This document shows positions 11,547-29,392 of a DNA stretch of 64,000 nucleotides, in pieces. The position numbers were made by a program, and so were the translations under genes. Source of the stretch: a virus; the IMG/VR virus record IMGVR_UViG_3300023179_006134, positions 1-64,000 of that record; one strand, written 5' to 3'. How positions within the stretch are numbered: position 1 is the stretch's first letter; each line of letters opens with the position of its first letter. The notes under the pieces are model-generated. The model made no database searches. It was not told where the DNA came from and saw nothing but the letters and a program-made list of their open reading frames with translations.

Positions 11547-11606
11547 TCAATCGCCTCATGATGGTATATACCACAAAATCCAATATATATTGGAATTATT
11601 TTCTAT

Positions 11607-11810
11607 TTATACAAAATCTTCTTCTGTGGATTTGGAATTCTCTCCCAATTCCTCGATTTTATCTGTTAAAGATTCAATTAAAGAATTTGCTTCTTTAAGT
11701 TTACTCTCCAGCATTTCAATTTTAGTTTCTGCAACAACTAATTGAGTAAATAAATCCATTGATTTTTTTTGATATGTCGTTAACAACCCTTTATAATCAT
11801 GTTCATTCAT
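11607..11810 (-). CDS. Small coiled-coil protein
   Basis: 67 aa with heptad pattern, preceded by CTAAATA. Confidence 0.55.
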   Translation of the reverse strand: MNEHDYKGLLTTYQKKSMDLFTQLVVAETKIEMLESKLKEANSLIESLTDKIEELGENSKSTEEDFV

Positions 11811-13552: not shown

Positions 13553-13843
13553 TCAGAATTCTCCAGCATCCACATCAATTTTATCATCCAATTCAACATC
13601 TAATTGGTCTACAAATTCTTGTGGTAACTCTGCATCTTCGGCAGCAGTTTGTAAAACTTGATCTGCTGTTACTAATGTATATTTTCTTAGTGTAGCATTA
13701 TATGTTAAGACATATTTGTCCTTTGATGACAAATTGGAAACAGAAACATCTGCTAAATCTGAAAGAAATTCTGCCACAACGGTTTTCTCCTGAGTTACGG
13801 TGAAATTATTACCAGAATTTAATCTTACTGAAAAATCTGCCAT
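13553..13843 (-). CDS. Small virion structural protein
   Basis: 96 aa, LSDLADV motif, ends IDVDAGEF; ATAAATA at 13866-13872 upstream. Confidence 0.6.
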   Translation of the reverse strand: MADFSVRLNSGNNFTVTQEKTVVAEFLSDLADVSVSNLSSKDKYVLTYNATLRKYTLVTADQVLQTAAEDAELPQEFVDQLDVELDDKIDVDAGEF

Positions 13844-13868: not shown

Positions 13869-14201
13869 TTATGTTGAGATACCTGCAGTCACCAGAGCCA
13901 TCCCTTCAATCACTCTAGTTTTAGTTCCAGAATTGTTTGTGACTAAGATATCATAAAAATATCTTCCTGGAGTAATTGTGGAAGTAACTTCATCTGACAT
14001 TGCAAGAGTGATTTTTCCAGTTGCGACTGTAATCGTGGTTGAGAAAGAATAAGAAGTCGTGGACTCTGGAAACTTTTTGATTTTTGCAACTGCACTTGCA
14101 CCTGACAAACCATAAACAGAACCATTTGCATTCGTAATCGTAAAGGTTGAAGAAAAATCTGCACCTTGTTCAATTGTAATATTGACTGCTGGAACTGCCA
14201 T
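13869..14201 (-). CDS. Small Ig-like baseplate/fibre adaptor protein
   Basis: 110 aa, NITIEQGADFS...GRYFYDIL...RVIEG motif common in myovirus structural clusters; CTAAATA at 14216-14222. Confidence 0.65.
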   Translation of the reverse strand: MAVPAVNITIEQGADFSSTFTITNANGSVYGLSGASAVAKIKKFPESTTSYSFSTTITVATGKITLAMSDEVTSTITPGRYFYDILVTNNSGTKTRVIEGMALVTAGIST

Positions 14202-14225
14202 TGTGGTTTTTTAGATATTTAGTTC

Positions 14226-14714
14226 TCAAAAGAAGTTAAAGTTCACATTTACACGACACTTATCATCACTACACGTTGTACTATGATGAGGTCTCGATGG
14301 GTCAAAGAGTAGAATACGATTTTCTATGGATTCTATTTTTATATCATCTTCTAAGATTGTAAGACCATTATTAGTATTCAGATAAAAGATTGCACCACGA
14401 TGAGAGAACTCATAATCTGTATGATTATCGTGATGTACTATATTCTCTGTAGATGGATATAGATTTCCTTTGATTCTCATCATTGCTCTACACTCTAAAA
14501 GGTTGAGAATAGATGCAAAGATTTGTGCTTGTGGTTCTGTATGAAACCCACTCCAGAACTCGTGAGTAAAGTAATATGATGCTGATATAGGTAGGTTTTC
14601 TTTTTCGTTTGTGACGACTGGAGTGAGATTCCAAGCAAAGTTTGGATTTAACATAAAGTTTTTAATGTTCTCAAATTCTTCCTGTGAGAGAGCATTGTCT
14701 ATAATCTTATGCAT
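14226..14714 (-). CDS. 2OG-Fe(II) oxygenase-like protein
   Basis: HTD...AIFYLNTNNG.T...ENRILLFD...H.S....R...NFN motifs. Confidence 0.75.
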   Translation of the reverse strand: MHKIIDNALSQEEFENIKNFMLNPNFAWNLTPVVTNEKENLPISASYYFTHEFWSGFHTEPQAQIFASILNLLECRAMMRIKGNLYPSTENIVHHDNHTDYEFSHRGAIFYLNTNNGLTILEDDIKIESIENRILLFDPSRPHHSTTCSDDKCRVNVNFNFF

Positions 14715-15231
14715 AGTTAATATTAATCACACAACGAGGATGGTCTGTTGATGTAACTGAATGATGTTCTATAGACCCATCAAAAAGTAACATACGATTT
14801 TGTACACATTGTACTTCAGTAGTGTCCTTAAGTACAGTAAACCCATTAGAAGTCGTTACATAAAATAATGCAACTCTATGAGGTACTTTTCTGTCTGTAT
14901 GAAACTCGTGATAAATGTGATTTTCTGTGGGAACTAAAATATTTGCACGAATATCAAAAAGTTTTTTTATTTTGAGTTTGTTAAGTATTGGTTTGACTAT
15001 GGGATAGTACCTATCAAACTTAAGTCCATTATCAGTTGAGTATAGTGAATGTACATAAATCCAATCGTGCTCTTCATAATCAGTTGGACCTAACTCTGGG
15101 TCTCTTACAATACCCTTTTGATAAGTCCAAGCAAAGTTATTTGGATTGTTTAAGTCTTCTGGAAAAAATGTAGAGGTAATAAAATCAAAATCTTCTTTCT
15201 CAAGAAAATCATCTATAATCTCATAAGTCAT
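14707..15231 (-). CDS. 2OG-Fe(II) oxygenase-like protein (paralog of neighbour)
   Basis: HTD...ALFYVTTSNGFT...NRMLLFDG...HHS...R.VININY. Confidence 0.75.
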   Translation of the reverse strand: MTYEIIDDFLEKEDFDFITSTFFPEDLNNPNNFAWTYQKGIVRDPELGPTDYEEHDWIYVHSLYSTDNGLKFDRYYPIVKPILNKLKIKKLFDIRANILVPTENHIYHEFHTDRKVPHRVALFYVTTSNGFTVLKDTTEVQCVQNRMLLFDGSIEHHSVTSTDHPRCVININYA

Positions 15232-15235
15232 AAAA

Positions 15236-15796
15236 TCATTCTAATGTATAAATCGCAAACATTCCACTTTGAGTAAATGCTTCTTGGATTTCTCCAAGTT
15301 CTTCTGCATTAAATGCAATACCAGAAACGATTTCAGTAAGCACTTCTTGGATTTTTTCTACATTTGCTCTTCCTGCTTTTGCATCACTCATCAGTGCAAT
15401 AAACTCTGTTGCAAGAGTATTTGCAAGAAGTGATTGTGATGCTGTTGTTTTAATTTTAGTATATGCATTCGTATTTAAAAGTCTGTCCCAAAACTGTTGA
15501 TACTGAACTCTTCTCTGTTTTTCATATTCTGGTGCTTCAGTTACATCATACTCACGAGTTTCTTTATTCCACTGATAGTCGTGAGTAAAGTAACTAGTTC
15601 CTTCAAATGGTGGCATCTGGATTGGTCCTTTCCAACCAAGTGCATTCAGTTCTTCATCTGTAAGATCAGGAAGGTCAGTTCTTACTTCTTCTCCAGGAGC
15701 AGGTCTCCACAAATCGGGGATTGTTTGTGGGTCATTTCCATTTGGAGGACTATATCTTCCTCTTGCTTCTGTTGCAGAAAGGTTTACGTAAGCCAT
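15236..15796 (-). CDS. Hypothetical protein (possible fibre-assembly-like)
   Basis: 186 aa, ...DLTDEELNALGW...YQWN; exact TATAAATA upstream at 15822-15829. Confidence 0.45.
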   Translation of the reverse strand: MAYVNLSATEARGRYSPPNGNDPQTIPDLWRPAPGEEVRTDLPDLTDEELNALGWKGPIQMPPFEGTSYFTHDYQWNKETREYDVTEAPEYEKQRRVQYQQFWDRLLNTNAYTKIKTTASQSLLANTLATEFIALMSDAKAGRANVEKIQEVLTEIVSGIAFNAEELGEIQEAFTQSGMFAIYTLE

Positions 15797-15814
15797 ATGA
15801 TTTCTGTGAGTTTC

Positions 15815-15880
15815 TTTTCTTTATTTATAAACCTTTATTTCTTGATATTGTGACTTATATTTCTCATTGATTTCTTTTTT
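15815..15880. repeat. 66-bp direct repeat, copy 1 (contains TATAAATA late promoter)
   Basis: 64/66 identical to 16562..16627 by manual alignment. Confidence 0.9.
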
Positions 15881-15912
15881 GACTCTTGATATTTTCCAGA
15901 CAAAATATAACA

Positions 15913-16551
15913 TTAATTGTAGGATAATGAGGATTTTTTTTGCAAATCATCAGTAAGACTGGAAAAATTATCACAAAAAATATCAAAAGCAATTATTATT
16001 CTATAATTATTACCAATATGTTTTTTTGAACCATGCATATATCCAGAGGGAAAAAATAATAGATCATTTTCATCTAAATCCGGTTCAAAAATTATTTCTT
16101 TTTTTGGTTGTTTTACAAAATTTCTATTTTTAAAAAAAGTTTTATTATGAGTTTCTTTATCAAACTTTAAATAATATACCCCACTAAAATCTGCTGTATG
16201 TTCATGTGAAAGTGTTTCCATTCCATTTTCATACAAAGAATACCACATTTTAGAAATAAAAAAACTATCATCTATGCGATAATATTTTAAATAATTGTAA
16301 AATGCTTTTTTTATTAAAGAAGAAAGTTCATTCACAAAAATTTTGTCTTCATCACAAAACACCGGTATATCCTCATCGTAAAATTGTTTCATAAAACAAC
16401 TAGTTCTTTTTTTGTTAAATTTAAATTTAAATTTATCGGATTTAGAATAATTAACATAATCTAATATTATTTTATCACATAGTTCTTTTTTATATTTAAA
16501 CTCAATAGTTTCCTTCCAAATATATGTAGGAATTTGTATCTCTGTACCCAT
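15913..16551 (-). CDS. 2OG-Fe(II) oxygenase (TIGR02466-like)
   Basis: HEH...SGVYYLK...LLFFPS...H....R...AFD motifs. Confidence 0.75.
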   Translation of the reverse strand: MGTEIQIPTYIWKETIEFKYKKELCDKIILDYVNYSKSDKFKFKFNKKRTSCFMKQFYDEDIPVFCDEDKIFVNELSSLIKKAFYNYLKYYRIDDSFFISKMWYSLYENGMETLSHEHTADFSGVYYLKFDKETHNKTFFKNRNFVKQPKKEIIFEPDLDENDLLFFPSGYMHGSKKHIGNNYRIIIAFDIFCDNFSSLTDDLQKKSSLSYN

Positions 16552-16561
16552 TATTATATCA

Positions 16562-16627
16562 TTTTCTTTATTTATGAACCTTTATTTCTTGATATTGTGA
16601 CTTATATTTCTCATTTATTTCTTTTTT
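16562..16627. repeat. 66-bp direct repeat, copy 2 (3' end of DUF6165-like gene)
   Basis: 64/66 identical to 15815..15880. Confidence 0.9.
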
Positions 16628-16930
16628 TATGGATGCTCTTAAGTCATTTGTGATATATACACTTCTTGCAAGTTCTATAAAAATTTCACCAAAGTCTTGT
16701 GATTTCTCAAGAACTCTTAAGTCATCTTCTATTTTCCAGAGTTTATGATTGATTGAGAGTAGTTTTGCAAGATAAGAATCATCATAGACTTGATGTTTCT
16801 TTGCGATTGATATAAGGTCTTGGAGTTCTTTATGAACATAAGAGTTGTCTGTATATTGAGACTTGATAGAAAGTATAGAAATCTTATCTAAGAGTTCTCC
16901 TACCGAGATTGGTATTTGTATTTCATCCAT
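16568..16930 (-). CDS. DUF6165-like protein
   Basis: IPISVGELLDKISILSIK...LWKIEDDLR...FIELARSVYITND.RA.IKKEIN signature. Confidence 0.7.
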   Translation of the reverse strand: MDEIQIPISVGELLDKISILSIKSQYTDNSYVHKELQDLISIAKKHQVYDDSYLAKLLSINHKLWKIEDDLRVLEKSQDFGEIFIELARSVYITNDLRASIKKEINEKYKSQYQEIKVHK

Positions 16931-17885
16931 AGTTAATGTTCTTTGGTTTTTCTATAATGATTTGTGGTTTCTTATTTCCTTCTATGTTTCTTATGATGTC
17001 CTGATATGCACTTTCTATTTCTTTCTGTGTAAAATCTATTCGTGGTTCGTTTAATCTTGAGGACATATGTGCCTGGAAACCAGAGATTCTCATTGAGTCT
17101 GGATAAAACTCCACATCTCTCTCAATAATATGAAATCCATCATAAGTCACATTCACACTATGAGTTCCTGCAATCATCACTGATGCTTTCTTATTCAGTG
17201 CTTTACAGATGTGCTGACCGCAACTATCACAACCCACAAAGTAATCAGCAGCACCAATGATTGCTGCCCATTCTCTTAAGTTTGGATCTGGGTCTGGTTT
17301 ATAAGTTCTTATTTCGTGAAATTCTTTTGCACCCATAAAAATTAGGTTATAATCCTTTGAGAGTTCTTTAATAAAGTAATCCAACATTGGTTTTGGAATA
17401 GACCTTAAACTATCATCAAAAATACCAGAAGGATGTGGAGTTGCAGTAGAACCATAAGGTTGCAATACGATGGTCTTTGATTTTTTATGTTTTGACTTTG
17501 CTTCTTCTATGATTTCATATGCTCTTCTTTTTTCCTGAAATGAAATATTCAGTTGCATTGGAGGAAGGTCACTATGGTCTGTGGAATCATTGATTTCTAC
17601 ATCAAATGCTTCTCTTAATGAAATCTCATTACGATAATATGCAGGAACACGATAAGGTTCTGGTGAGATTACCTTGTCTGCTTTCCAAAATAAATCAAAA
17701 GAACCTCGGGCATCGGGGTTAAAGGTTCTTTCCTGAAGTTCTGGAATACCCCAAGTAATAAAATCCCACCCTGGAATCATTATGTACCATTCTTCATTGA
17801 GATGATTTTTGGAATATTTAAGTAGTGCTGGGATTGCGGTGATGATTCTTCCAAATCCACCATCTAATGTAATAATCGTCGTCAT
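16923..17885 (-). CDS. GT9 (heptosyltransferase-like) glycosyltransferase
   Basis: GG.GR N-terminus; IVLQP.G; LREWAAII..ADYFVGCDS.GQH...AL motif. Confidence 0.7.
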   Translation of the reverse strand: MTTIITLDGGFGRIITAIPALLKYSKNHLNEEWYIMIPGWDFITWGIPELQERTFNPDARGSFDLFWKADKVISPEPYRVPAYYRNEISLREAFDVEINDSTDHSDLPPMQLNISFQEKRRAYEIIEEAKSKHKKSKTIVLQPYGSTATPHPSGIFDDSLRSIPKPMLDYFIKELSKDYNLIFMGAKEFHEIRTYKPDPDPNLREWAAIIGAADYFVGCDSCGQHICKALNKKASVMIAGTHSVNVTYDGFHIIERDVEFYPDSMRISGFQAHMSSRLNEPRIDFTQKEIESAYQDIIRNIEGNKKPQIIIEKPKNINYG

Positions 17886-18697
17886 AAGTAACTCAACTCA
17901 AAATGTTTTGCTTTGTGCGTATAAGTATTCCACCAATACTTCCAGTCTATGTATGAGTCCTCTTGGAGACTTGATTGCATATGAAGAACTAAACTTGGAA
18001 TAGGGTTGATTCTTATAATGTGTTTGGACCAGATATAAGAGATTGTATTTCCTTCGTGTATTGTATCATTCTTATTTCCAGTTCCATCCCATTCCTGATA
18101 TTCAGTTGCTAAAGTCTCAAAGAGATTCCAGTGGTCCTGAAATACTTTTGGTGCAGTCATCATTGTAAATGTAGTACCCCATCCAGTTTTCCAGTGACGA
18201 TATTGACCTCTCATTATTAACTCTGGAGTATTATGTTTTGGGTCATAGGTTTCTGGTTCATCCCAAGGAAAGATACAAAGTGGTTGTGGAAGATTATACT
18301 TGGAAGAAAGATACTCATATTCACTTAACATCTCATAAAGAGCACTTGGAGAATGTAAGTAATCATCTTCTACAGAGTATACTAAATCAGCAGTGGAGTT
18401 TTTGCAATACTCAAACTGACTTAATACGCTTTTATTTGGTCCACCTTCTTCTAATGAAATGATTTTAGTTGAGTGTCTTGAGGTCTTAAGAATACTCTGG
18501 AGGTTATTGAGAAACTCTTGAGAACTATGGTCGTCTAATACAATAATGTTGATTTGGTTCTTACATTGATTGGTTGCATTAATCAATGATGTAATACAAC
18601 CTTCTATGAGTTCTCTTTTAGAAACAGAAATAAATCTTGGAAACTTACTTATATTAGATTTGTCGTGAGTTCTTATGATAATATCAAGGGACTTCAT
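17882..18697 (-). CDS. GT-A fold glycosyltransferase
   Basis: VLDDHS and VYSVEDDYLH motifs; close paralog of 20492..21304. Confidence 0.7.
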   Translation of the reverse strand: MKSLDIIIRTHDKSNISKFPRFISVSKRELIEGCITSLINATNQCKNQINIIVLDDHSSQEFLNNLQSILKTSRHSTKIISLEEGGPNKSVLSQFEYCKNSTADLVYSVEDDYLHSPSALYEMLSEYEYLSSKYNLPQPLCIFPWDEPETYDPKHNTPELIMRGQYRHWKTGWGTTFTMMTAPKVFQDHWNLFETLATEYQEWDGTGNKNDTIHEGNTISYIWSKHIIRINPIPSLVLHMQSSLQEDSYIDWKYWWNTYTHKAKHFELSYL

Positions 18698-19485
18698 TGG
18701 TAATTAAATGTTGATTCTTTTGCAAATTTTACAGAACTATCATAAACTTCTTTATCTTTCCACATTTGAATATAATTATTCGTTCCATTAAATCCAAAAC
18801 AACTTATATCACCACGATTATCAATGCCTTTAACAATTGGTTTTCTGTATGCAATTATTTTATCATCTTCATCCATTAAATATGCAAATTCGTAAATATA
18901 ATTCTCTTCTTCGTGTGGATTAATATAACACAATTCTCCATTAGTTGCTATAAAATTTATATCTTGATTGTAAGTCATAATTGCTCTTCCTAATACTATA
19001 CAAGCAGTTGGTTCAATAGATATTATACCATAAAACTCATTTTTACAATTTTCTACAATAATATCAATACATTTTTTCATTATTTTAGATTTTTTTTCTG
19101 TAAATATAATTGAGGTTGCTACTGACCAACTTCTTTTAGATGATTTTGTAACATCTCTAAATGCAAAAAATTTAAATGCATCTAAATTTGGAATAGTATT
19201 AATGAGTTTAACATTCAAATCAATATAAAGACCACCATAAAGATATAATAAACAATATCTTGCTAAATCTGCTTTACAAGCATAGGGATTAAGTTTTTGA
19301 TATGCGGTAAATACATCAATATCAAAATTGTTTTTTATAATCTCTTCTATTTCTTCACCTGAATACAAATGATATTCTTCATTAGGATATAGATTTTTTA
19401 TTTGTTCATAACAAATATTATGATACTTTGGAAAATCATCTGGCAATTTATTCGTATCATTTATGAGTATTTGATGTATTTTCAT
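18694..19485 (-). CDS. GT32 (OCH1-like) glycosyltransferase
   Basis: KIHQI...KADLARYCLLYLYGGLYIDL signature. Confidence 0.8.
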   Translation of the reverse strand: MKIHQILINDTNKLPDDFPKYHNICYEQIKNLYPNEEYHLYSGEEIEEIIKNNFDIDVFTAYQKLNPYACKADLARYCLLYLYGGLYIDLNVKLINTIPNLDAFKFFAFRDVTKSSKRSWSVATSIIFTEKKSKIMKKCIDIIVENCKNEFYGIISIEPTACIVLGRAIMTYNQDINFIATNGELCYINPHEEENYIYEFAYLMDEDDKIIAYRKPIVKGIDNRGDISCFGFNGTNNYIQMWKDKEVYDSSVKFAKESTFNYQ

Positions 19486-20246
19486 TTATATTTTAATGTA
19501 AGTGTTTCTTTTTGTTCTTTAATATAAGTATCGTTCATAACCTTCTTCCAGTCTATGATAGGGCTGATATGATTTGCATCACAATGAGTACTCCAACCAG
19601 GCATTGGAGAAATTAAATATCTCTCTTGTTTCTGTAGTTCCCAGAACTTATCATAATCTTTTGAGAAATGAAATCCTTCTATTTCCTTTACACCATTAAT
19701 AGAATGTTTTTGATGCACCTCCAAGTCTTCCATAAGTGTCTTATACTTGCAAGCAAAAGATTGAGTGGTTGCTGGTACTGCTCTCCAATGAGAACTTGGT
19801 GTTGTAAAGATTTCACATAACCATCCTTTTGCAATAAAGAAATCAAAGTCATAAAGAGTAAGATAATGTGAGTTAATCTCAAACCCTTCTAACATTACTT
19901 CACTCCACCCTGGACGATGTAAATAATCATCCTCTAAAAGATAAACAATCGTATCATCACTTAAGTTTTTAGATTGGGTGATTTCTAATGTCGCCAAAAA
20001 ACTATCACATTCATTACCACACTTAATGATTTCTACATTCTTTTCTTTCGCAAGAAAAGTCTTATCAATACTACCATAAAACTCATCATAAACAATCGTA
20101 TAGTTTATCAGGTCTGGGTTAAGTGTATTCTTAAAGTTCTCAAAGACTTTAATCTTATTAAACCAAGAAGGTCTTATTCTGTCTGGAAGTTCTTGTATTT
20201 TTGAGTAGTAGCAGTGTCTTATAAAGACTTCAATTGGTTTTTTCAT
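19482..20246 (-). CDS. GT-A fold glycosyltransferase
   Basis: VYLLEDDYLH motif; SHWR...TT.SF and SPMPG.STH. Confidence 0.65.
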   Translation of the reverse strand: MKKPIEVFIRHCYYSKIQELPDRIRPSWFNKIKVFENFKNTLNPDLINYTIVYDEFYGSIDKTFLAKEKNVEIIKCGNECDSFLATLEITQSKNLSDDTIVYLLEDDYLHRPGWSEVMLEGFEINSHYLTLYDFDFFIAKGWLCEIFTTPSSHWRAVPATTQSFACKYKTLMEDLEVHQKHSINGVKEIEGFHFSKDYDKFWELQKQERYLISPMPGWSTHCDANHISPIIDWKKVMNDTYIKEQKETLTLKYK

Positions 20247-20499
20247 TTAAAAGTTCACTTCCCATTTGTGCGATTTCATCCCAACTCATTTTTCCAATCT
20301 CTTCGTATCCCACTTTTTCTAATACTTTAATATAACCCCTTGGAACAACTTCAGTAGAAAAATAATACTCAAGTTCCTCATAAAGTGGGTTATCAGTATC
20401 GAGTCTTATTTGTAGTGCTTTTAAAACTTTCTTTATATCTTTGATTGTCTTAAGTCTTTCAGTACAAAGTTCAAATCTTCTTACAGGTTTTTCAGTCAT
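20230..20499 (-). CDS. Hypothetical protein
   Basis: 89 aa, overlaps both neighbours in the operon. Confidence 0.55.
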   Translation of the reverse strand: MTEKPVRRFELCTERLKTIKDIKKVLKALQIRLDTDNPLYEELEYYFSTEVVPRGYIKVLEKVGYEEIGKMSWDEIAQMGSELLNEKTN

Positions 20500-21304
20500 A
20501 AGTCACTCCAAATGATTTGAGTTTTGAGTATTTATCCCACCACTTCAGGTGGTCTATATGAGGGTCTCGTTGCTTCTCAAACTGAATATGAAGAGCAAGA
20601 GAAGGCACAGGATTTACACGAGTCACATAATGTTCCCAGATATTTGAGATTGTATTTCCTTCGTGAATCAGTTCTATTTTATCTATTCCATTCCAAGGAG
20701 TATATTGAGATGCAAGTTTCTTAAAAACTTCCCAGTGGTCACGAAATACTTTAGGTTTCGTCATCATTGTAAAAGTCGTCCATATTCCTTCTTTCCAGTG
20801 TCTTGTAGGTGTTCTAAACAATCTTCCTGGTATTATAAAAGTGTATTCATAATCCTCTCTATTATCAAAAGGAAATAAACAAAGTTCTTTTTGTAAATGA
20901 TAATAAGATTTTAAGTAACCATAAGTAAATAACATTTCTTGGATTGCTTCTGTGCAGTGTAGGTAATCATCTTCTACAGAATATACTAAATCAGCAGTAG
21001 AGTTTTTGCAATACTCAAACTGTTTTAATCCACTATAGTGAAATCCTTTTACTTCTAAATCTATAAGTTGATATGAATGATTTGAGTGTGAGAAGATTTT
21101 ATGAACTTTAGAAATACAATCAGCAGTGCAATAGTCATTAAGAACAACAAAAGAAATCTCTGCATTTGTGACTACATTTGCAGAGTTAATCAAAGAAGAT
21201 AAACAACCAAGTATTAAATTTTTTTTGGGTATATCAATATACCTTGGTTTACCTCCGTGTATATTTTGACCATCGTGTATTCTTAAGATAATATCCAGTT
21301 TCAT
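20492..21304 (-). CDS. GT-A fold glycosyltransferase
   Basis: QFEYCKNSTADLVYSVEDDYLH identical to 17882..18697. Confidence 0.7.
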   Translation of the reverse strand: MKLDIILRIHDGQNIHGGKPRYIDIPKKNLILGCLSSLINSANVVTNAEISFVVLNDYCTADCISKVHKIFSHSNHSYQLIDLEVKGFHYSGLKQFEYCKNSTADLVYSVEDDYLHCTEAIQEMLFTYGYLKSYYHLQKELCLFPFDNREDYEYTFIIPGRLFRTPTRHWKEGIWTTFTMMTKPKVFRDHWEVFKKLASQYTPWNGIDKIELIHEGNTISNIWEHYVTRVNPVPSLALHIQFEKQRDPHIDHLKWWDKYSKLKSFGVTYD

Positions 21305-22443
21305 TGATAAGTAATATTCATATTATACTGATTTACTATTTTTTTGATTGCATTTTTATTTTTTACAATATCATAATCAGCACCAAGATATAAATTATCC
21401 AATTTAGATGGGTTGGTATTGTTTGTTAATCTATGATAGTGAAATTTTGCTAAACCAAAAGACTGACATGCATCATTTGCAATTGGGTCAACATAAAATT
21501 TTATTTTTGGAAAGTTTTTCTTAATTTTAGAATTTCCAACAACATTTAATGCACACCCTCCGGAAAAAACAATATTGCAACACTTTGTTTTTTTTATTGT
21601 ATAATCAATGCGTTCTAAAAACACTTTTTCCAATGCTTTTTGAAGTGCATATGCTAAATCTGCTTTTTTTTGAAAATTCATATCTTTTAAATATGGAAAT
21701 AATTTTGTATTCAAAGACCTATTTGCACGAAATAAATTCATATTAGACAAGATACTATTTTCACATAAAATATTTGGTATTTCCTTATTTGGCATTCCAT
21801 AAGAAAATAATCCCATAGTTTTCCCTTGACCACCAATACAAGAATATCCAAGATGTTCAGTTATTGTACCATACATCACACCAATATCTAAATGAGAATT
21901 TAAATCTACGTCATAATTAAATAATTCTTCAAAATATTCAATAAAATCGTTATTTGCTGCATAAACATCTGGAGAATACCATAAATTTTTATATATTGGG
22001 TTAAAATTATTTGGATAATTTGCATAATATAATGATGTAGTCTCAACTGAAAATAAATTATTTTTAATATCATTAAAAGAGCTTCCCCATCCATCTATAA
22101 CAAGACAAGCAGATTCTTCATATCCAGAACCATAGAAAGCAGAAGACGCATGATACAAATGATGATTATCATAATCTATAATATTATTATATACTTTTAT
22201 TTGATTGAAATCTAAAAATTCGTATATTAGTTTTTTTTCTTCCTCCTCTCTAATATTTGCAAGACACAAGTAATCAATATATTTTGTATACATTGATATG
22301 CAATTAAGCATTTTAAATGGTGTTGAAGAATCATTTTTTACTCTACTTACTCTTTCTTCTTGTAATAAAAGTAAAATTTTTTCATTTTCTAAAATACATA
22401 TAGATGCATTGTGATTTTGTATTGATATTGCTACTATAATCAT
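21301..22443 (-). CDS. Carbamoyltransferase N-terminal (Kae1-like) domain as a separate gene
   Basis: HNAS...EERVSRVKND, HHLYHASSAFY.S, VIDGWG, GKTMGL..YG, SGGCALN, DP.AND motifs. Start more likely the ATG at 22443 (ATGA overlap) than the track start at 22473. Confidence 0.8.
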   Translation of the reverse strand: MIIVAISIQNHNASICILENEKILLLLQEERVSRVKNDSSTPFKMLNCISMYTKYIDYLCLANIREEEEKKLIYEFLDFNQIKVYNNIIDYDNHHLYHASSAFYGSGYEESACLVIDGWGSSFNDIKNNLFSVETTSLYYANYPNNFNPIYKNLWYSPDVYAANNDFIEYFEELFNYDVDLNSHLDIGVMYGTITEHLGYSCIGGQGKTMGLFSYGMPNKEIPNILCENSILSNMNLFRANRSLNTKLFPYLKDMNFQKKADLAYALQKALEKVFLERIDYTIKKTKCCNIVFSGGCALNVVGNSKIKKNFPKIKFYVDPIANDACQSFGLAKFHYHRLTNNTNPSKLDNLYLGADYDIVKNKNAIKKIVNQYNMNITYQ

Positions 22444-23015
22444 AAGTACTCCTTTTTTATAAGAAATTTGCATTCTGGAAAATACAAATAATTTAATTTT
22501 GAATCATAAATTGTTTTTATTGCATCTTCAATTGTTTCTACTATTGGTTCTCCTGCTAAATTAAATGATGTGTTTCCTACTAATGGAATATTAGTTAGAT
22601 TAAAAAAACTTTCTATTATAGAATAATAATTAAAATTATTTTCTTTAGTTACTGTTTGTATTCTACAAGTATCATCAACGTGAATAACAGATGAGATAAG
22701 TTGTTTTTTTTCTTTCTTAACATCAAATGAATAAGTCATAAAAGGAGATTCTTCTATTTTGTTCATATGAAACCAGTTTTTAACCTCACTTAATAAAATG
22801 GAACAAGCTAGTGGTCTAAACTTTTCTCTTCCCTTTATTTCGTTGACCGTATCTTTATTTGATGAAATTTTTGGATTAAATATCAAAGACCTATTTCCCA
22901 ATGCTCTTGAACCGGCCTCAGACCTACCATTAAATATACAAATAATATTATTATCCAATAATAAGTTTGCAATATCACAAGGTTCAGTATTCTCTATAAG
23001 TTTTAATTTATTCAT
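22440..23015 (-). CDS. Carbamoyltransferase C-terminal (YrdC-like) domain as a separate gene
   Basis: GRSEAGSRALGNRSL, KGREKFRP.A, HVDDTCRIQTV, NTSFNLAGEPIVET motifs. Confidence 0.85.
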   Translation of the reverse strand: MNKLKLIENTEPCDIANLLLDNNIICIFNGRSEAGSRALGNRSLIFNPKISSNKDTVNEIKGREKFRPLACSILLSEVKNWFHMNKIEESPFMTYSFDVKKEKKQLISSVIHVDDTCRIQTVTKENNFNYYSIIESFFNLTNIPLVGNTSFNLAGEPIVETIEDAIKTIYDSKLNYLYFPECKFLIKKEYL

Positions 23016-23017
23016 AA

Positions 23018-23626
23018 TCAACCATAAGTAAAAGATTTAATGTTAAAGATATGATTCATTTCTAATGTACTTATACCAAAACCGTAAACCCACAAAATTC
23101 TTGGAATATCACCAGATATTTCTGTGACCTCATGTTCTAAATGAGAAGTAATATACATTATCATATCATTTTTATCAAACTGATATGGAGTATTTTCAAT
23201 ATATGTGATACCACCAGACTCTGGATTTTGAGTCACAAAGTTGCAGTGTAAAGTATAAGTATTCTCAAAATATATTGGGTCAGTATGTTTACAGCAACTT
23301 CCTGGAGGAAATGCAATCGTAGTGCATATTCCATCTGTAAAGGATGGCCAGGGAGCAATGGTATTATCTTTTATTTTTAAGTAGTTCAGTAATCTTTTTT
23401 GTATATCATAAACTTCTTTTGGGTACTGAACTTTATAATCTTGATATTCTTTACACCTACCATAAGAATGTCTTGTTGTAAACCTTGTTTGAAATTCATC
23501 ATTGTTCATTCCTGGGTTCATAAAATATGGTTGCTTATAGTTACTCAAAGTCCATTGATTCAATTTATCAATCTCATTATCAGTAATAAAGTTTTTAACT
23601 ACTTTAACCAGTTTTTTCTTGTTCAT
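23018..23626 (-). CDS. 2OG-Fe(II) oxygenase
   Basis: HTD...GG.T...HEV....R motifs. Confidence 0.7.
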   Translation of the reverse strand: MNKKKLVKVVKNFITDNEIDKLNQWTLSNYKQPYFMNPGMNNDEFQTRFTTRHSYGRCKEYQDYKVQYPKEVYDIQKRLLNYLKIKDNTIAPWPSFTDGICTTIAFPPGSCCKHTDPIYFENTYTLHCNFVTQNPESGGITYIENTPYQFDKNDMIMYITSHLEHEVTEISGDIPRILWVYGFGISTLEMNHIFNIKSFTYG

Positions 23627-24241
23627 TTATTGATAAGAGAAGAGTTGTTTTGTATCTTTGATATATGAAAAGTTTTGATAATCAATATCATATATTTGAT
23701 AGAGTTGATTTTTAGATTTCTTTGTAAGTTCTATTGCCTTCTCATCTTTTATTTTAGAAGAGTTAAGTTTTTCTATTTTATCAATACCAATCTTTTGTAG
23801 GTCTTCTAATAGGTTTTCATATCTTACATAATAATCTATTTCTCTTTCTCCATTTTCATTTGAGATAACAAAAGTTTGTGGAACAATCCAACGATTAAAC
23901 TCTTTTGGATTTTTATAAAGATGTGAAACATATTCATTAATATTCATGTCATTACAAAGTTCATAATGATGATGCTTCTCAAGTCCTTCTTCACCAGTAG
24001 CAGAGAACCATCCACTTTCATCCATTCGTGCAAACTTATATGCAGAGATAAATCTATCTATTGGTTCACGAACAACAGTAAACTTTTTATACTCATTCCA
24101 ATAATTACCATAGTGTTCTTTATATTCTTTTATGGTTTTATCCATATATATATTCTCAACTCCCATTGCCTTGATAATAGAAGTTCCTGCATTTTTAGGA
24201 ATATGAATGAATATGAGTTTTTTTTCGTGATTGATAGTCAT
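23627..24241 (-). CDS. Sulfotransferase (family 2-like)
   Basis: FIHIPKNAGTSI (5'PSB) and VREPIDRFISAY (3'PB) motifs. Confidence 0.85.
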   Translation of the reverse strand: MTINHEKKLIFIHIPKNAGTSIIKAMGVENIYMDKTIKEYKEHYGNYWNEYKKFTVVREPIDRFISAYKFARMDESGWFSATGEEGLEKHHHYELCNDMNINEYVSHLYKNPKEFNRWIVPQTFVISNENGEREIDYYVRYENLLEDLQKIGIDKIEKLNSSKIKDEKAIELTKKSKNQLYQIYDIDYQNFSYIKDTKQLFSYQ

Positions 24242-25794
24242 TGATATAATAGTTTCTTATTTTTGATTGTGACTAAAGTTTCTATTTCTGGTAGGTATAA
24301 GTATTCTATCATACTATTCTTAAGAGTGTAAACTGCGTGGTTAAATGTTTCTACTAATGGTTCTCCACCCAGATTAAAACTTGTATTTAATAACATTGGA
24401 ACACCAGTCTTCTCAAAGAAACAAGAAATCAAAGCATAAAAGTGTGGATTTTGGTTTTCTGTAACTGTTTGTATTCTACAAGTGTTATCTGCGTGAATGA
24501 TTGCTGGTGCTTGTTCTATTGCATTATCATAAGCATTCATTGCATATTGCATATAAGGACTTTCTTTAAGTGAAAGCATATCAAACCATTTTGATGCTTC
24601 TTCTTGTAGAATACTTCCTGCAAATGGACGAAAGTTTTCTCTTTTTTTGATTTGATTTACAATATCTTTACCATTAGAAACTCTTGGGTCAAAAAGTAAA
24701 GAACGATTACCAAGGGCTCTTTGTCCTGCCTCACTCTTACCTTGGAATAATGCAACAATATTTTTTTGTAGTATTAGATTTACGATGTCCTCATAAGATA
24801 CTTTTTGTGTTTGTAGATTTTTTAAGTCATAGGAAGTTTCTTGATGTCCAATATAAACATTTTGGGGTGGTTGAATAGGTGGTAAGTCTTGAGAAGATTG
24901 TAAGTAGTGATAATATGCAGCACCAATACTAATGCCTGCATCAAAACAAACAGGGTCTATGTAAAGGTTAATATTCTTAAGATTTTTAAGGTAATGATAG
25001 TTTGCAACGCAGTTTAATCCATAACCACCAGAAATCACTACATTTCTAATATCAGTTTCTTCTGTGTATTTCTTGATAAGATTTAGAACGTAACTTTGAG
25101 TTTCTTGTTGTAAGTTATATGCACAATCCACCCTTTGTTTCCATTCTTTAGTATTATAAGGATATTGTAGTTTATTTTTATGATTCTTGTATTGTGCAAG
25201 ACCCATTATCTTTCCTGGTCCATCAAAAACATCAAGGTTTAATTTGTATGAATACAAACAAAACTTTTCCCCAACAGTTTGATCTCTATAATTTATTTTT
25301 TCGTAATGTTCAGAAAATGTATTTGACATCCCTTTAAATTTTCTACTTCGTTTGAAAATTTCTTTTTTTTCATTTTTTGTATTTAAATAATATATACTTT
25401 CCAATTCTAAATTATTATATTTTAATATTGCTCCAACACCATCCATAGAAAAACAAATTGCTTCATCAAAACTTGAATTATAAAATCCACAGTATGCATG
25501 ATAAAGATGATGCATCTCATCAAACATTAAAATTTGTTTATATGATATTTTTTTTAATAATTCTAAAATACTTTCAAGTGGATAAGTATATTCTTTTAAT
25601 TTATTTTTAATTATAATCACACAATCAAATATATTATTTTTATTTTCAGATATTAAATTTAATATTTTTTTATAATAATGATCATGTTTTTTTCTGGAAA
25701 ATCTTTCTTCCATTTTGTAAGAAACTATTTTACCATTATCAAATTCAGTAATTGAACTATCGTGCATTAATATTGGTATTGTTAAAATTTTCAT
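24238..25794 (-). CDS. Carbamoyltransferase (NodU/CmcH family), full length
   Basis: HDSS, EERFSRKKHD, HHLYHA, DGVG, GKIMGLA, SGGYGLNCVAN, EAGQRALGNRSLL, NTSFNLGGEP motifs. Confidence 0.88.
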   Translation of the reverse strand: MKILTIPILMHDSSITEFDNGKIVSYKMEERFSRKKHDHYYKKILNLISENKNNIFDCVIIIKNKLKEYTYPLESILELLKKISYKQILMFDEMHHLYHAYCGFYNSSFDEAICFSMDGVGAILKYNNLELESIYYLNTKNEKKEIFKRSRKFKGMSNTFSEHYEKINYRDQTVGEKFCLYSYKLNLDVFDGPGKIMGLAQYKNHKNKLQYPYNTKEWKQRVDCAYNLQQETQSYVLNLIKKYTEETDIRNVVISGGYGLNCVANYHYLKNLKNINLYIDPVCFDAGISIGAAYYHYLQSSQDLPPIQPPQNVYIGHQETSYDLKNLQTQKVSYEDIVNLILQKNIVALFQGKSEAGQRALGNRSLLFDPRVSNGKDIVNQIKKRENFRPFAGSILQEEASKWFDMLSLKESPYMQYAMNAYDNAIEQAPAIIHADNTCRIQTVTENQNPHFYALISCFFEKTGVPMLLNTSFNLGGEPLVETFNHAVYTLKNSMIEYLYLPEIETLVTIKNKKLLYQ

Positions 25795-25796
25795 GA

Positions 25797-26843
25797 CTAA
25801 TATGAAATAGATGGTGTTTTTTTGACTTTTTTAAGTGGCAGATTTTCTAAACTTGTGAGTAAATCTATCCAGTCTTGTGTTCTTCTTTCCCAATTAAACA
25901 AATAATCTACGTATTCTTTTTGTTTTTTTAGGTGTTCTTGAGTTTCTTTTGTATTTACAATGTCTATTGCTTTTTTTAGTTCTTGATAACACCTTTCTTT
26001 GTGTGGAATAATCTTTTCGTGATATGGATACATCATCGTCCAGTTTGATGCAGTTTCAGGAAGACATCCGTAGTTTGGATGAACACATAAAAGACCAGCA
26101 CTCATTGCTTCTAATAAAGAAAGGCAGAAAGTTTCTACCATAATATTTGGATAAGCAAAAATATGAGAAGATGCTAATGATTTCTTGAGTTCATCATTTG
26201 GTAAATATCCAATGTTCTTAATTTTTGGATGTCTTTCTAATCTTTGGTACAAATCACTATGTTCATAATTTTTTTGCCAATTTAAAGCATTTTTTAAAAA
26301 TGAATTTCTTGTGTCCTCATATATTGACCAAGAAGAATGAACCTTAAGTTCTATATTATCATATTCTTCACATAGTTTCTCAAATACATCAACCAATAAT
26401 GAAAGACCTCTTTGTGGATTTGAATGATAAACTAATATAATCTTATTTTTTGGTTTCTCTTGATGTTCTATTGGGTCTAGTGCATGTTTCATTACTACAC
26501 AATGACTTCTTGGAATATCATAAGTTCTTATCCAGTTTTCCATTTGATGATGAGAGACAAAAACAATCTTGTGAAACTTATTCCAACCACCATTTGAAAG
26601 AGGTTTTGGTTCTATTCCCAACCAACTAGAACCCTGCTCGTTTTGGTGTGTATCTAAATGTGACCAATAAAGTCTTAATTTTAGACAATCAAGATTTTTT
26701 ATTTGATTTATATGACCACCACAAATTATTTGAAACTTACTTAAAAGTTCTTGTGGTAATCTTTTTTGCAATTCATATTTTATAATATCTACTCCTCCTT
26801 TTGAGGATTTTCTGAACTCATCAAACTCAATCGTCATAGTCAT
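25797..26843 (-). CDS. GT4 family glycosyltransferase
   Basis: GG N-terminal motif; S.PQRGL; IFAYP...ETFCLSLLEAMSAG (EX7E). Confidence 0.8.
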   Translation of the reverse strand: MTMTIEFDEFRKSSKGGVDIIKYELQKRLPQELLSKFQIICGGHINQIKNLDCLKLRLYWSHLDTHQNEQGSSWLGIEPKPLSNGGWNKFHKIVFVSHHQMENWIRTYDIPRSHCVVMKHALDPIEHQEKPKNKIILVYHSNPQRGLSLLVDVFEKLCEEYDNIELKVHSSWSIYEDTRNSFLKNALNWQKNYEHSDLYQRLERHPKIKNIGYLPNDELKKSLASSHIFAYPNIMVETFCLSLLEAMSAGLLCVHPNYGCLPETASNWTMMYPYHEKIIPHKERCYQELKKAIDIVNTKETQEHLKKQKEYVDYLFNWERRTQDWIDLLTSLENLPLKKVKKTPSISY

Positions 26844-27544
26844 TCATCAATCCATCGTCTTAATGGTGCCCAGTATCCTTCTATACCCATTACATGAATA
26901 TTTTGTACTAGTTTTTTGTTTAAGTGCTTATAGAGTAGATGCTCTATATCTGCTTGTTTTTTTATTGTTGATGCATAGATTATATCTTTCTTCATTTTAT
27001 CATATGTTTCTATGATGTTTGAGAGTAAACTAAAATCAAAACTCCAACACCGAGTCATATATTGAAACATACTGGATTTTACCTCAAAATTATATAAGTT
27101 TTGACTGCGTTCAGGAAATAATTTCACAACTTTATCTTTTGCACTTTGATGTTTAGAGTAATCAAACTTGGAGTTTAATTTATATCTTCCACTGATTTTA
27201 AAGATTCTATCATAAGAACTTGTAATATTTTTTAAGTAATCACTAAACATCATTATTTCTAACATTGACTTGATAATAATATCAGGCTCAAGGTCAATAT
27301 TCATCTGTAAGTATTTTTGTAGATGATATTGGATTTCTTCATTCTTTGTGTAATCAATCAATTTACAATCAAATATATTTTCTTTCACACTCTTCTCACC
27401 ACAATCAATGATTACCATAGAGGAACCAGGTGCATAAGTCTCAATGGACTTTATGGTTTCTTTTGTTTGTTCTATGCGTTCTTCTGTGGAACACTTACCA
27501 TAAGAAGTGTGAATAGCAGAAGTTATAATAAAGTGAGAAGTCAT
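26840..27544 (-). CDS. Hypothetical protein of glycosylation clusters
   Basis: FIITSAI...ER..QT..TI.SI and FKISGRY motif. Confidence 0.5.
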   Translation of the reverse strand: MTSHFIITSAIHTSYGKCSTEERIEQTKETIKSIETYAPGSSMVIIDCGEKSVKENIFDCKLIDYTKNEEIQYHLQKYLQMNIDLEPDIIIKSMLEIMMFSDYLKNITSSYDRIFKISGRYKLNSKFDYSKHQSAKDKVVKLFPERSQNLYNFEVKSSMFQYMTRCWSFDFSLLSNIIETYDKMKKDIIYASTIKKQADIEHLLYKHLNKKLVQNIHVMGIEGYWAPLRRWIDE

Positions 27545-28371
27545 TTATACTCAATAAACTTCTTATCTAACTTCTCAACAATATCAACATCAATTTTGTA
27601 CCCTTTTTTCCAGAACTCCATATTCATTTCATTATACTTCTGGACGATTTCTGGTGGAAGAATACATCTTGGAGGATTATATTCTACTTTTCTCTTGACT
27701 GTATGAAGGTCTTTAAGGTTACATGATTTATCAAAAACCTCATTAGAGTATTCTACATTCTCAAAGTCGTGAGAATAATAAGGTCTCTCCAAAAACTCAT
27801 ACACTTCTCTCATTGTCTTCTCTGGAGTTTTGCATAGGTTCTCATAATCAATCAACATAATCATTTCTGGGTTCATTGCATAACCTTCTAAAAAAAAAGA
27901 ATAATAATTGAAGATTTCTCTTTGAAAAAGTTCTTGAATTCTTATAAAAATATTTTCAGAAAAAATCTGTTCATTAATTTGTTTGGTGTAAAAATAATTT
28001 CTATTAAATAAAACTTCAAAAGAATTCAAAATAGAAACAATATCTCTTACAGGGCATAAGATTTTAGTGTAAGGAAAGAGTGCCTTGAGAAATGGTGTTT
28101 TTTTAGTCCATCCACGACAACTATCAAAAATGACTGGTTTCTCTATGTGCTTATAATATCCATCAAAAACCCCATACATTAGATTTTTTCTTTGGTCTTC
28201 TGTGATATTAAAGTTATTTTCACCACTTGTAATCACATCAATTGAGGTTCCTGTAAGTCCTTGTACTGGTGATGCAATATCGGCATAGAAATCTGGGTTT
28301 TGTTTAAGAATACCAGAAAGTAATGTAGAACCAGACCTTGGAAGGCCAGAGATAAAATAAAAGGATTTCAT
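27541..28371 (-). CDS. Sulfotransferase
   Basis: FISGLPRSGSTLL (5'PSB); VRD...I..S; YE.L...P motifs. Confidence 0.85.
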   Translation of the reverse strand: MKSFYFISGLPRSGSTLLSGILKQNPDFYADIASPVQGLTGTSIDVITSGENNFNITEDQRKNLMYGVFDGYYKHIEKPVIFDSCRGWTKKTPFLKALFPYTKILCPVRDIVSILNSFEVLFNRNYFYTKQINEQIFSENIFIRIQELFQREIFNYYSFFLEGYAMNPEMIMLIDYENLCKTPEKTMREVYEFLERPYYSHDFENVEYSNEVFDKSCNLKDLHTVKRKVEYNPPRCILPPEIVQKYNEMNMEFWKKGYKIDVDIVEKLDKKFIEYK

Positions 28372-28377
28372 AAAGAA

Positions 28378-29001
28378 TTAGGTTTCTTCAGTCTGTGTTG
28401 GATATTCAATACTACCTTTTGGAAGAGCAATCAGGTTAAATGAGATTGAGATGCGTTCTTCATCGTGATTATTGGTCTCTACTGAATGTGGTAAGTAGGA
28501 AGGAAAGAGAATAATATTACCTTCTACTGGTTCTATACGAATACTTTCTCCCGTGAACTGATTCTTTTGTGACGTGAGAGCACAACCTTTCCACATACGA
28601 TTGATTGCAGGATTTTGAAGTACCAGTTTTCCACTTTCATCAGGTGCTTGGAGATAAAAGACACCAGAGAATACTTCACCGTGAACGTGTTCACTATTCA
28701 TACACTGACGAGTATCATTAACGTTTAACCACGCAGAAGTAAGTGCAATATCACAATCCACAAAGTCCAAATCTGCAACTGCCTTAAATCCCAACTGGCA
28801 GAGATACTCAAAAAGTGGACGAAGTTCTTCTACTCCTTGTAATGTTTCTGGAGAGTGATAACCAGCAATATTTGATTTTTGTACTGATGGATTTTCTCCC
28901 TTATAAGTTCTTACTGCATTCAGGAAAATTTCTTTGTGTTCCTCAAACTCTGGATATTCACTCTGCCAGAGAGGAACCGAATAAATGGGCATTAAGTTCA
29001 T
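28378..29001 (-). CDS. 2OG-Fe(II) oxygenase (TIGR02466-like)
   Basis: W.NVN...HVH...SGVFYL...FPSYLPHSV...RISISFN. Confidence 0.85.
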   Translation of the reverse strand: MNLMPIYSVPLWQSEYPEFEEHKEIFLNAVRTYKGENPSVQKSNIAGYHSPETLQGVEELRPLFEYLCQLGFKAVADLDFVDCDIALTSAWLNVNDTRQCMNSEHVHGEVFSGVFYLQAPDESGKLVLQNPAINRMWKGCALTSQKNQFTGESIRIEPVEGNIILFPSYLPHSVETNNHDEERISISFNLIALPKGSIEYPTQTEET

Positions 29002-29227: not shown

Positions 29228-29392
29228 TCAATAAGTTACACACCTGAAGGCACGGACACAGAGAGTGGCAACCCTACCGTTGGTGCTGCAGTGGCCAGCA
29301 TGGAAGTCCACGAATTTAGCGATGTGCGCATTATGGCCCGGTGTACTACTCCAGTAGCGAGCGATGCTGCAGGCGTGAGTGCCACAGGAGTA
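29228..29392 (-). mobile_element. Putative DGR variable repeat (VR)
   Basis: 45 of the last 54 codons end in C/T and 27 in C, in an AT-rich genome; consistent with A-mutagenised AAC/AAT template codons. Confidence 0.65.

Follow-up and report, generated by a model that had tools for sequence, protein, structure and literature searches.

Why do enzymes from unrelated families, packed side by side in one phage gene island, finish in nearly the same four residues? The question is raised by an IMG/VR virus contig of 86 kb, estimated to be 40% complete (record IMGVR_UViG_3300023179_006134), whose first 64,000 nucleotides (nt), hereafter the window, hold an island of 18 consecutive, tightly packed minus-strand open reading frames (ORFs) at positions 14707–28371. 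A gp33 homolog and a baseplate tail-tube-cap-like gene mark the source as a T4-like phage; the baseplate gene is 32–40% identical to those of named Kyanoviridae and cyanomyoviruses, so the phage is distant from them, and its placement with Kyanoviridae in an earlier sequence-only reading of the window stands only as a remote relationship. The island sits embedded among tail-fibre genes, with a G+C fraction (GC) of 0.27–0.34 in 2-kb windows spanning 14001–28000, compared with 0.33–0.39 across most other parts of the window.

Here, we describe the shared ending, written as a hydrophobe (L/I/V/F) at position −4, any residue at −3, Tyr at −2 and any residue last, follow it through related phages, and weigh what it may do. 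Where an enzyme carries it on a C-terminal tail, it looks like a selected protein address label in one clade of uncultured T4-like aquatic phages.

Read from 14707 to 28371, the island C-termini are INYA, (YTLE), LSYN, (VHK), INYG, LSYL, FNYQ, LKYK, (KTN), VTYD, ITYQ, KEYL, FTYG, FSYQ, LLYQ, SISY, (IDE) and IEYK, with untagged endings in parentheses. Tyr thus occupies position −2 in 13 of the 18 ORFs, and 12 of these 13 have L/I/V/F at −4, the exception being KEYL with Lys; SISY is a variant in which Tyr is the terminal residue. Elsewhere in the window, Tyr stands at −2 in 2 of the 39 ORFs with a readable C-terminus (RDYG and RLYS), neither with a hydrophobe at −4. Tyr makes up 6.4% of island residues, and the probability of finding it at −2 in at least 13 of 18 ORFs is 2e-12; for at least 12 of 18 full motifs, the binomial probability is 3e-17. 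The endings, obtained by translating the window ORFs, are exactly those listed in the sequence-only reading, and its claim that the tag is nearly absent outside the island is borne out. The island genes, in coding order and starting with the oxygenase that opens the island, are as follows.

28378–29001, minus strand: 2-oxoglutarate (2OG)-Fe(II) oxygenase, the island's first gene, untagged (PF13759, E 2.9e-22)
27541–28371, minus strand: Sulfotransfer_3 sulfotransferase (Pfam), tail ...KKFIEYK
26840–27544, minus strand: 234-residue protein with no family match, untagged, ends ...WIDE
25797–26843, minus strand: GT4 glycosyltransferase (PF00534), terminal-Tyr variant ...SISY
24238–25794, minus strand: full-length O-carbamoyltransferase (PF16861 and PF02543), tail ...KNKKLLYQ
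23627–24241, minus strand: Sulfotransfer_2 sulfotransferase (Pfam), tail ...LFSYQ
23018–23626, minus strand: 202-residue protein with no family match, tail ...SFTYG
22440–23015, minus strand: stand-alone Carbam_trans_C domain (Pfam), tail ...KKEYL, with Lys at −4
21301–22473, minus strand: stand-alone Carbam_trans_N (Kae1-like) domain (Pfam), tail ...NITYQ
20492–21304, minus strand: member of the most abundant tagged family, recognized by an invariant EDDYLH block, tail ...GVTYD
20230–20499, minus strand: 89-residue acidic protein, untagged, found only in viruses
19482–20246, minus strand: second member of the EDDYLH-block family (family alignment), tail ...TLKYK
18694–19485, minus strand: Gly_transf_sug / Caps_synth glycosyltransferase (Pfam), tail ...TFNYQ
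17882–18697, minus strand: GT2-like glycosyltransferase, third EDDYLH-block paralog (Pfam and family alignment), tail ...ELSYL
16923–17885, minus strand: 320-residue phrog_8954 protein, weakly heptosyltransferase-like (phrog and a sub-threshold NCBIfam match), tail ...KNINYG
16568–16930, minus strand: DUF6165 protein (PF19662), untagged, ends ...KVHK
15913–16551, minus strand: 2OG-Fe(II) oxygenase paralog (Pfam and paralog alignment), tail ...SSLSYN
15236–15796, minus strand: 186-residue protein, untagged, possibly tail-fibre-assembly-like, with its own TATAAATA motif upstream
14707–15231, minus strand: 174-residue 2OG-oxygenase-like protein (phrog_274 and motifs), ends ...RCVININYA

The families are unrelated, as had been claimed: Pfam, used for family assignment, recovers GT2, Gly_transf_sug/Caps_synth, GT4, Sulfotransfer_2, Sulfotransfer_3, Carbam_trans_N, Carbam_trans_C and 2OG-FeII_Oxy_5, and only the 'GT9' assignment falls back to a sub-threshold NCBIfam match (E 0.0067).

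An IMG/VR scan with one tagged gene returned 17 loci at 65–88% identity, which differ in gene content and have most of their genes tagged. ORFs in phage loci were called with an in-house greedy longest-ORF caller (ATG only, at least 60 residues), and the 17 loci together with the genome gave 453, of which 215 have a GC below 0.335. In these 215 low-GC ORFs Tyr stands at −2 in 50%, compared with 0–8% at position −1 and at positions −3 to −12, and L/I/V/F/M is found at −4 in 121 of the 135 ORFs having Tyr at −2. Further islands came from scans with the sulfotransferase and the 320-residue gene. Across 26 distinct contigs, a set from which duplicate fetches (L111–L117, L120, L121) and all loci from outside the clade were dropped and which does not include L135–L145, hydrophobe-x-Tyr-x ends 159 of 639 ORFs and Tyr is at −2 in 184 of 639; clustering by blastp yields 175 sequence families, 26 of them mostly tagged. 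The enrichment in related genomes that had been proposed as a check is therefore present. Five families recur in nearly all of these contigs: a fibre/CLec-type structural family in 24 of the 26, the 320-residue family in 24, 2OG oxygenases in 23, the sulfotransferase in 23 and the main tagged family in 22. In L107 and L108 the island is minimal, comprising the first oxygenase, a tagged sulfotransferase, a tagged 320-residue gene and DUF6165.

Selection acts on this ending as a short linear motif of the protein, in which a basic stretch leads to hydrophobe-x-Tyr-x, or sometimes hydrophobe-x-Tyr, at the free C-terminus. In the 135 tags Tyr is written TAT 107 times and TAC 28 times, followed by TGA in 77, TAA in 53 and TAG in 5, and both Tyr codons are present in most of the larger families; the mixture of codons and stops noted earlier within the window, where tags are followed by TGA, TAA or TAG, thus extends to the relatives. 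With one representative per family, nucleotide information is limited to three places: the Tyr codon, the middle base of codon −4, which is T, and the stop codon. Many different codons encode the hydrophobe at −4, and the tails of different families have no other nucleotides in common, the remaining signals being a generally high A content and a bias towards last codons of the NAA type. Within families, Tyr is constant and −4 remains hydrophobic, amid wide variation at −1, −3 and −5. Mostly tagged families of at least three members comprise 133 proteins, 120 of them with Tyr at −2; in the 13 exceptions the tail is lost or its register shifted, and Phe or Trp takes the place of Tyr in none of them (0/13), though Phe is as frequent as Tyr. 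In the EDDYLH-block family, an alignment of 25 sequences with paralogs 20–24% identical, Tyr253 is among the 22 invariant columns.

Could the ending instead be a nucleic-acid signal, arising from translational coupling, termination context or an embedded late promoter, or be merely compositional or inherited? Some observations lean that way: the island is AT-rich, a single-nucleotide change would turn the last codon into a stop in 104 of 159 tagged ORFs versus 207 of 455 ORFs without Tyr at −2, and among low-GC ORFs tagging is most frequent where genes overlap at ATGA (38/51) or lie 0–10 nt apart (24/40), with 9/30 at 11–50 nt and 19/49 beyond 50 nt. However, the 10 ORFs ending in ...ATGA elsewhere in the genome all lack Tyr at −2, untagged island genes are coupled just as tightly, and tags occur at every spacing, so ATGA coupling, already discounted in the sequence-only reading, is rejected. 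A late promoter is rejected as well, since the exact T4-type octamer TATAAATA is present in only 4 of the 159 tags. Composition fails on three counts: the Tyr excess is confined to one position, Pelagibacter-type loci at GC 0.29 remain at background, and a second glycan cluster of the same phage has no tag in 13 ORFs. Together with the varied codons at −4 and the lack of other shared nucleotides, these results make a nucleic-acid or compositional origin very improbable; the motif is conserved as protein, in both codons and before all three stops, and not only as DNA, for instance as an initiation element of the next gene.

Apart from the tails, exact TATAAATA octamers stand in the window at 15822–15829, 30264–30271, 9027–9034 and 11604–11611 on the minus strand and at 59040–59047 on the plus strand, all five just upstream of gene starts, a number not above chance. 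None stands immediately before the gene that opens the island, so the CLec gene and the island may be transcribed together from the motif at 30264.

On the transferases and tailoring enzymes, the tags sit on flexible tails of about 10–30 residues appended past the catalytic folds. The island Sulfotransfer_3 protein illustrates this best. In a 1.8-billion-protein library, the 150 best-scoring 50%-identity cluster representatives (at most 59% identical for near-full-length matches) have Tyr at −2 in 5 cases, which is background; the matches generally stop near residue 255 of the 276-residue query, 20 inspected endings mostly finish there, and the window protein continues for about 19 residues past the end of its distant homologs. 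Among its 120 closest database homologs, 119 keep Tyr at −2. An AlphaFold (AF2) model of the sulfotransferase has a mean predicted local distance difference test (pLDDT) score of 90, with 56 falling to 44 over the last 16 residues; that of the EDDYLH-block family, at a mean of 53.7, was too poor for a fold search. The full-length carbamoyltransferase aligns to the solved homolog 7xb6 only to residue 501 of 518, leaving 17 residues beyond the fold. In three families, the tagged members are untagged paralogs with an added tail: the 2OG oxygenases, an oxygenase-like family with an extension of about 30 residues, and a GT25 family represented in the second glycan cluster by an untagged copy. Over the last 12 residues, tagged proteins carry a net charge of +1.5 compared with +0.14 in untagged low-GC ORFs.

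For the enzymes, these alignments and paralog tails reject an ending intrinsic to the fold. The earlier claim of a tail beyond the catalytic fold accordingly holds for them, and distant homologs do mostly end at the fold boundary, but it does not extend to the 14707 ORF. There, INYA directly continues an Arg-containing last strand, and the paralog at 14226–14714 ends in a similar strand (...RVNVNFNFF) that has no Tyr, so this ending probably forms the final strand of a 2OG-oxygenase-like fold and is not an appended tail. The phrog_274 family to which it belongs is labelled 'DNA endonuclease V' (denV in the P-SSM2, e.g. L021:31424–31957, and S-SSM7 records); the members here (window 14226–15231) carry 2OG-oxygenase-like C-terminal motifs, and the denV label may be wrong. 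The last tagged enzyme of the run is the 15913–16551 oxygenase, which is followed by a 116-nt gap.

Several families show how the ending varies. Orthologs of the GT4 protein (25797–26843), which itself ends in a terminal Tyr, finish in ISYQ or FSYS; the ortholog of the stand-alone Carbam_trans_C protein in L011 is untagged (...KKT); the 320-residue family has Tyr at −2 in 19 of 24 members; and DUF6165 copies elsewhere in the clade end ...KCYV or ...KLY. The first oxygenase (28378–29001), with homologs detected in 21 of 26 clade records, has a tag-like ...PKGSIEY inside its C-terminus, followed by Pro and 2–7 further residues, and Tyr is gone in some orthologs; judged from these sequences, the ending looks like a masked or decayed tag. 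Five low-GC ORFs end in hydrophobe-x-Tyr, at least three of them from tagged families. In L143–L145 (112–1173, 5726–6523, 6528–7172), several island proteins likewise have Tyr last, among them a radical S-adenosylmethionine (SAM) enzyme and the ORF that immediately follows the first oxygenase. The terminal-Tyr variants, and the 104 of 159 tags whose last codon is one step from a stop, suggest that the stop toggles between Tyr-stop and Tyr-x-stop.

Other features of these genes stand apart from the tag. The carbamoyltransferase is present both as a full-length copy (24238–25794) and, adjoining it, as a split and permuted pair in which the C-only ORF (22440–23015) precedes the N-only ORF (21301–22473) on the coding strand, with the same split in L011. 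DUF6165, in phages usually placed after the 320-residue gene, is unusually conserved, being 64% identical to its counterpart in Synechococcus phage S-SRM01 and 39–51% to those of Pelagibacter, Prochlorococcus, Synechococcus and many other bacteria; for the enzymes encoded beside it, identity across the same phages is only about 30%. Next to the island, the multi-copy fibre/CLec-type family (window 29228–30175, with paralogs flanking nearly every island) has a GC of 0.40–0.47 and spans 75–730 residues; it nearly always ends ...RAFRCVTY and, counted within a broad structural cluster, is the most constant island neighbour (24/26 contigs). Two fibre-like proteins (11869–13521 and 13553–13843) both end ...DAG(T/E)F, and several copies in related loci end ...IDVD(A/S)G(E/Q/G)F, so that the neighbourhood holds another conserved C-terminal motif.

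The tag marks one system, not enzymes generally. The same phage has a second glycan cluster beyond the window (record 75179–85718, L146:9143–19682) that encodes GT25, UDP-glucose dehydrogenase, NAD synthase, two GT11 enzymes, GT2, DUF5672, an RXYLT1-like protein and GT17; at a GC of 0.33 and with 5.7% Tyr, all 13 of its ORFs are untagged (Fisher P = 4e-5 versus the island). Within related islands, the tail or its terminal-Tyr form is found on transferases, oxygenases and radical-SAM enzymes, and enzymes that supply soluble precursors (UDP-glucose dehydrogenase, a pyridoxal-phosphate (PLP) enzyme) lack it. Named or deposited phages supplied nine regions for comparison (S-SKS1, S-SRM01, S-CAM7, three AG-345 records, P-SSM2, S-SSM7 and S-CAM1), eight fetched around sulfotransferase or 320-residue homologs and that of S-CAM7 around a partial 186-residue homolog. 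They contain 5 motifs in 287 ORFs, and none of the 5 lies in those homologs. Homologs of the 320-residue protein at 28–40% identity in P-SSM2, S-SSM7, S-CAM1, AG-345-O18 and AG-345-P14 are untagged, and S-SRM01 shows a weak Tyr-Leu pattern, with Tyr at −2 in 4 of 22 ORFs and the full motif in one. In 80 bacterial DUF6165 loci, many of them Pelagibacter at GC 0.29, Tyr is at −2 in 3.1% of ORFs, which is background (same caller, with ATG/GTG/TTG starts and at least 80 residues).

Two rival explanations can be set against this distribution. In the first, a tail that is both basic and aromatic would direct the enzymes to the membrane at its cytoplasmic face, or to another anionic surface, where a lipid-linked acceptor sits; this would suit both the charge of +1.5 and the tagging of transferases and tailoring enzymes in preference to soluble precursor enzymes. 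Interfacial binding, however, should tolerate Phe, Trp or Leu and should not fix a position, and here Tyr is fixed and never becomes Phe or Trp; one hydrophobe and one Tyr are also little for anchoring, and the second glycosyltransferase cluster does without the tail. We therefore regard membrane targeting as improbable.

In the second, a host protease or chaperone would read the tail, which would govern stability as either a time-limiting C-terminal degron or a protective ending. C-terminal recognition by proteolytic machines is well known, and a strictly C-terminal, short, flexible motif on unrelated proteins would be apt for it, as would a restriction to one clade if the signal were tuned to one host. 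Passages of PMC8755798 moreover document docking of a penultimate-Tyr motif to a protease core. Against this, the second glycan cluster and the precursor enzymes are untagged, with no obvious reason to time only the acceptor-acting enzymes, and no protease partner is known; we likewise consider a stability signal a poor prospect.

We give about even chances to the tail being a docking or recognition peptide read by a common partner. Three features point to a specific pocket, namely the fixed C-terminal register, the indispensable Tyr hydroxyl and the hydrophobe two positions earlier; the alternating polar positions suggest a short extended strand, and a flexible basic linker and the restriction to enzymes that act on an acceptor fit a docking role. 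In this reading the last residues would extend as a short strand into a pocket that a single partner offers to all the enzymes, contacting it mainly through the Tyr hydroxyl and the C-terminus close by, and docking would bring interchangeable enzymes acting on the same acceptor to one place. Such a partner would probably be encoded outside the island, in the remaining ~60% of the genome; alternatively, it could be the common acceptor itself, for example the fibre/CLec proteins flanking every island, or a host protein.

That Tyr is never replaced by Phe or Trp (0/13 exceptions) implies that its hydroxyl matters, and it is also what its covalent modification would predict. The main rival accordingly treats the penultimate Tyr as a site of O-sulfation by the island sulfotransferase, or of phosphorylation, glycosylation or nucleotidylation, which would switch the enzymes on or off or create a binding epitope. 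The Sulfotransfer_3 enzyme has homologs in 23 of 26 clade records and in complete islands comes directly after the first gene, and the tails are flexible and accessible in the model (pLDDT 56 to 44). By profile and by predicted fold its family is nearest to animal protein-tyrosine sulfotransferases: the TPST1 profile scores E 2.8e-17 against 3e-9 for the next non-TPST profile, among the Foldseek matches listed the top 12 are TPSTs (TPST1/2; TM 0.52–0.65), and the protein is predicted to have the overall TPST fold, with a PAPS (3'-phosphoadenosine-5'-phosphosulfate)-binding PRSG(S/T)T loop. Known TPST and RaxST sulfation sites, however, are acidic, whereas the residue before Tyr is N/S/K/E/T in 99 of 135 tags and E or D in only 16, on tails with a charge of +1.5. 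The family consensus moreover has no Glu where the TPST catalytic Glu, which we take to be Glu99 of TPST2, aligns. The sulfotransferase family is mostly untagged elsewhere, and in ten records (L123–L130, L132, L133) homolog copies 47–57% identical to the island enzyme have no tag in the flanks examined. Modification of the Tyr is thus unlikely.

A more specific form of the docking reading, which we hold only tentatively, makes the tail the address label of a viral multi-enzyme assembly line, in which a phage-encoded hub or a nascent fibre or receptor-binding protein would have a pocket for basic-hydrophobe-x-Tyr-x-COOH, and any enzyme acquiring the tail would join a pathway for decorating the virion or the surface of the host. 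An assembly line of this kind would explain why island genes turn over freely while the tail stays.

What might read the tail? The four small untagged island proteins put forward earlier as receptors are not supported in this role, as none is universal among tagged islands. The 234-residue protein is present in only 7 of the first 18 loci. The 89-residue protein is undetected in tagged islands including L109, L110, L118 and L119 (4–8 tags each), and more widely in the fetched flanks of L007, L009, L010, L107–L110, L118, L119 and L122, and it has no match in 50,697 phage records. The 186-residue protein, which is preceded by a late-promoter-like octamer and weakly resembles tail-fibre assembly proteins (a lead only), goes undetected in the flanks retrieved for L109, L110, L118 and L119, although each of these loci has 4–8 tags. 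DUF6165 was an attractive candidate because it is 64% identical to the protein of S-SRM01, which alone among the distant phages shows a weak pattern of Tyr-Leu endings; it too is undetected in the fetched flanks of those four loci despite their 4–8 tags each, and its 80 bacterial loci have background Tyr and no other island protein. The sliding clamp is bound by the C-terminal ends of T4 gp33 and gp43; as a reader it is rejected, since gp33 homologs end in AKLVF, AKLPI and AKLPL and S-CAM7 gp43 in ESFFG, none with Tyr at −2.

Several points weigh against reading the tail as an address label with a common partner. No reader was found, and no untagged island protein is universal. Proteasome (PF00227) and PDZ (PF13180, PDZ_2) models have no Pfam match in the 86-kb, 40%-complete record. 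Hint, GSP-synthetase and ATP-grasp_4 Pfam models find none in that record or in 4–5 other clade fragments, in scans (PF03738, PF13403 and PF07591 on the record itself; PF03738, PF07591, PF01079 and PF13535 across 5–6 clade fragments) of records that are all 17–40% complete and with models that divergent forms could escape. All counts depend on a simple longest-ORF rule, and many loci are closely related to each other, near-identical sets being L003/L004, L118/L119 and L143–L145. The terminal-Tyr variants show some slack in the register relative to the carboxylate, a basic tail would also be apt for membrane binding, and a strict need for the Tyr hydroxyl fits covalent modification equally well.

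The nearest documented parallel is the HbYX/GQYL motif, a penultimate-Tyr motif that, as passages of PMC8755798 describe, docks eukaryotic 19S ATPase subunits and bacterial Mpa into one receptor. The phage ending resembles it in brevity, in its place at the very end of a flexible C-terminal extension and in a free last residue, and Tyr would likewise be the main binding determinant. It differs in having a hydrophobe at −4 (121/135) and N/S/K/E/T before the Tyr (99/135), where HbYX/GQYL has a hydrophobic residue or Gly-Gln, and its carriers are transferases and oxygenases rather than ring-shaped activators, so the parallel lies in the mode of working only.

PDZ ligands require a hydrophobic last residue and are read at positions 0 and −2. 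Like them, the phage ending is a four-residue motif in register with the free carboxylate and would probably bind by strand addition, but its last residue is Q (32), K (31), S (18), N (11), G (10) or D (8) in 110 of 135 tags, and its fixed positions, counted from the last residue in the same way, are −1 and −3. Dockerin-cohesin pairs, encapsulin cargo-loading peptides and microcompartment encapsulation peptides comprise 10–70 residues with their own fold or helix. The phage tag shares with such pathway-wide targeting tags the gathering of unrelated enzymes of one functional set under one terminal label, yet consists of four fixed-register residues and a basic stretch. The outer-membrane beta-signal has an aromatic last residue with alternating hydrophobes, whereas the tagged enzymes end in polar residues, and only the 2OG-like paralog family (NFNFF/NFNYF) fits that signal; T4-type clamp-binding tails differ in that gp33 and gp43 ends in the same phage group have no Tyr at −2.

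In its setting the island resembles the hypervariable host-recognition islands with glycosyltransferases that PMC7029224 describes in pelagimyophages and cyanomyophages: it too is a structural-region island between tail-fibre genes, with glycosyltransferases, carbamoyltransferase and 2OG oxygenases. The term 'C-terminal' is absent from the article's main text, and in the cyanomyovirus lipopolysaccharide (LPS)/heptose cassettes of the P-SSM2, S-SSM7 and S-CAM1 records the homologous genes are untagged. The sequence-only reading knew of no description of this tag, and literature searches, which covered articles without their supplementary files, found none either.

T4-like phages of marine and fresh waters commonly carry glycosylation islands among their tail-fibre genes, and the tag offers a bioinformatic rule for sorting the genes of such hypervariable islands into one functional system. 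A four-residue label on about 26 unrelated families is also an experimental handle, as the tail peptide can serve as bait for a partner or acceptor. If a reader exists, the ending would be a compact and portable recruitment signal and a new example of a short linear motif in viruses of bacteria.

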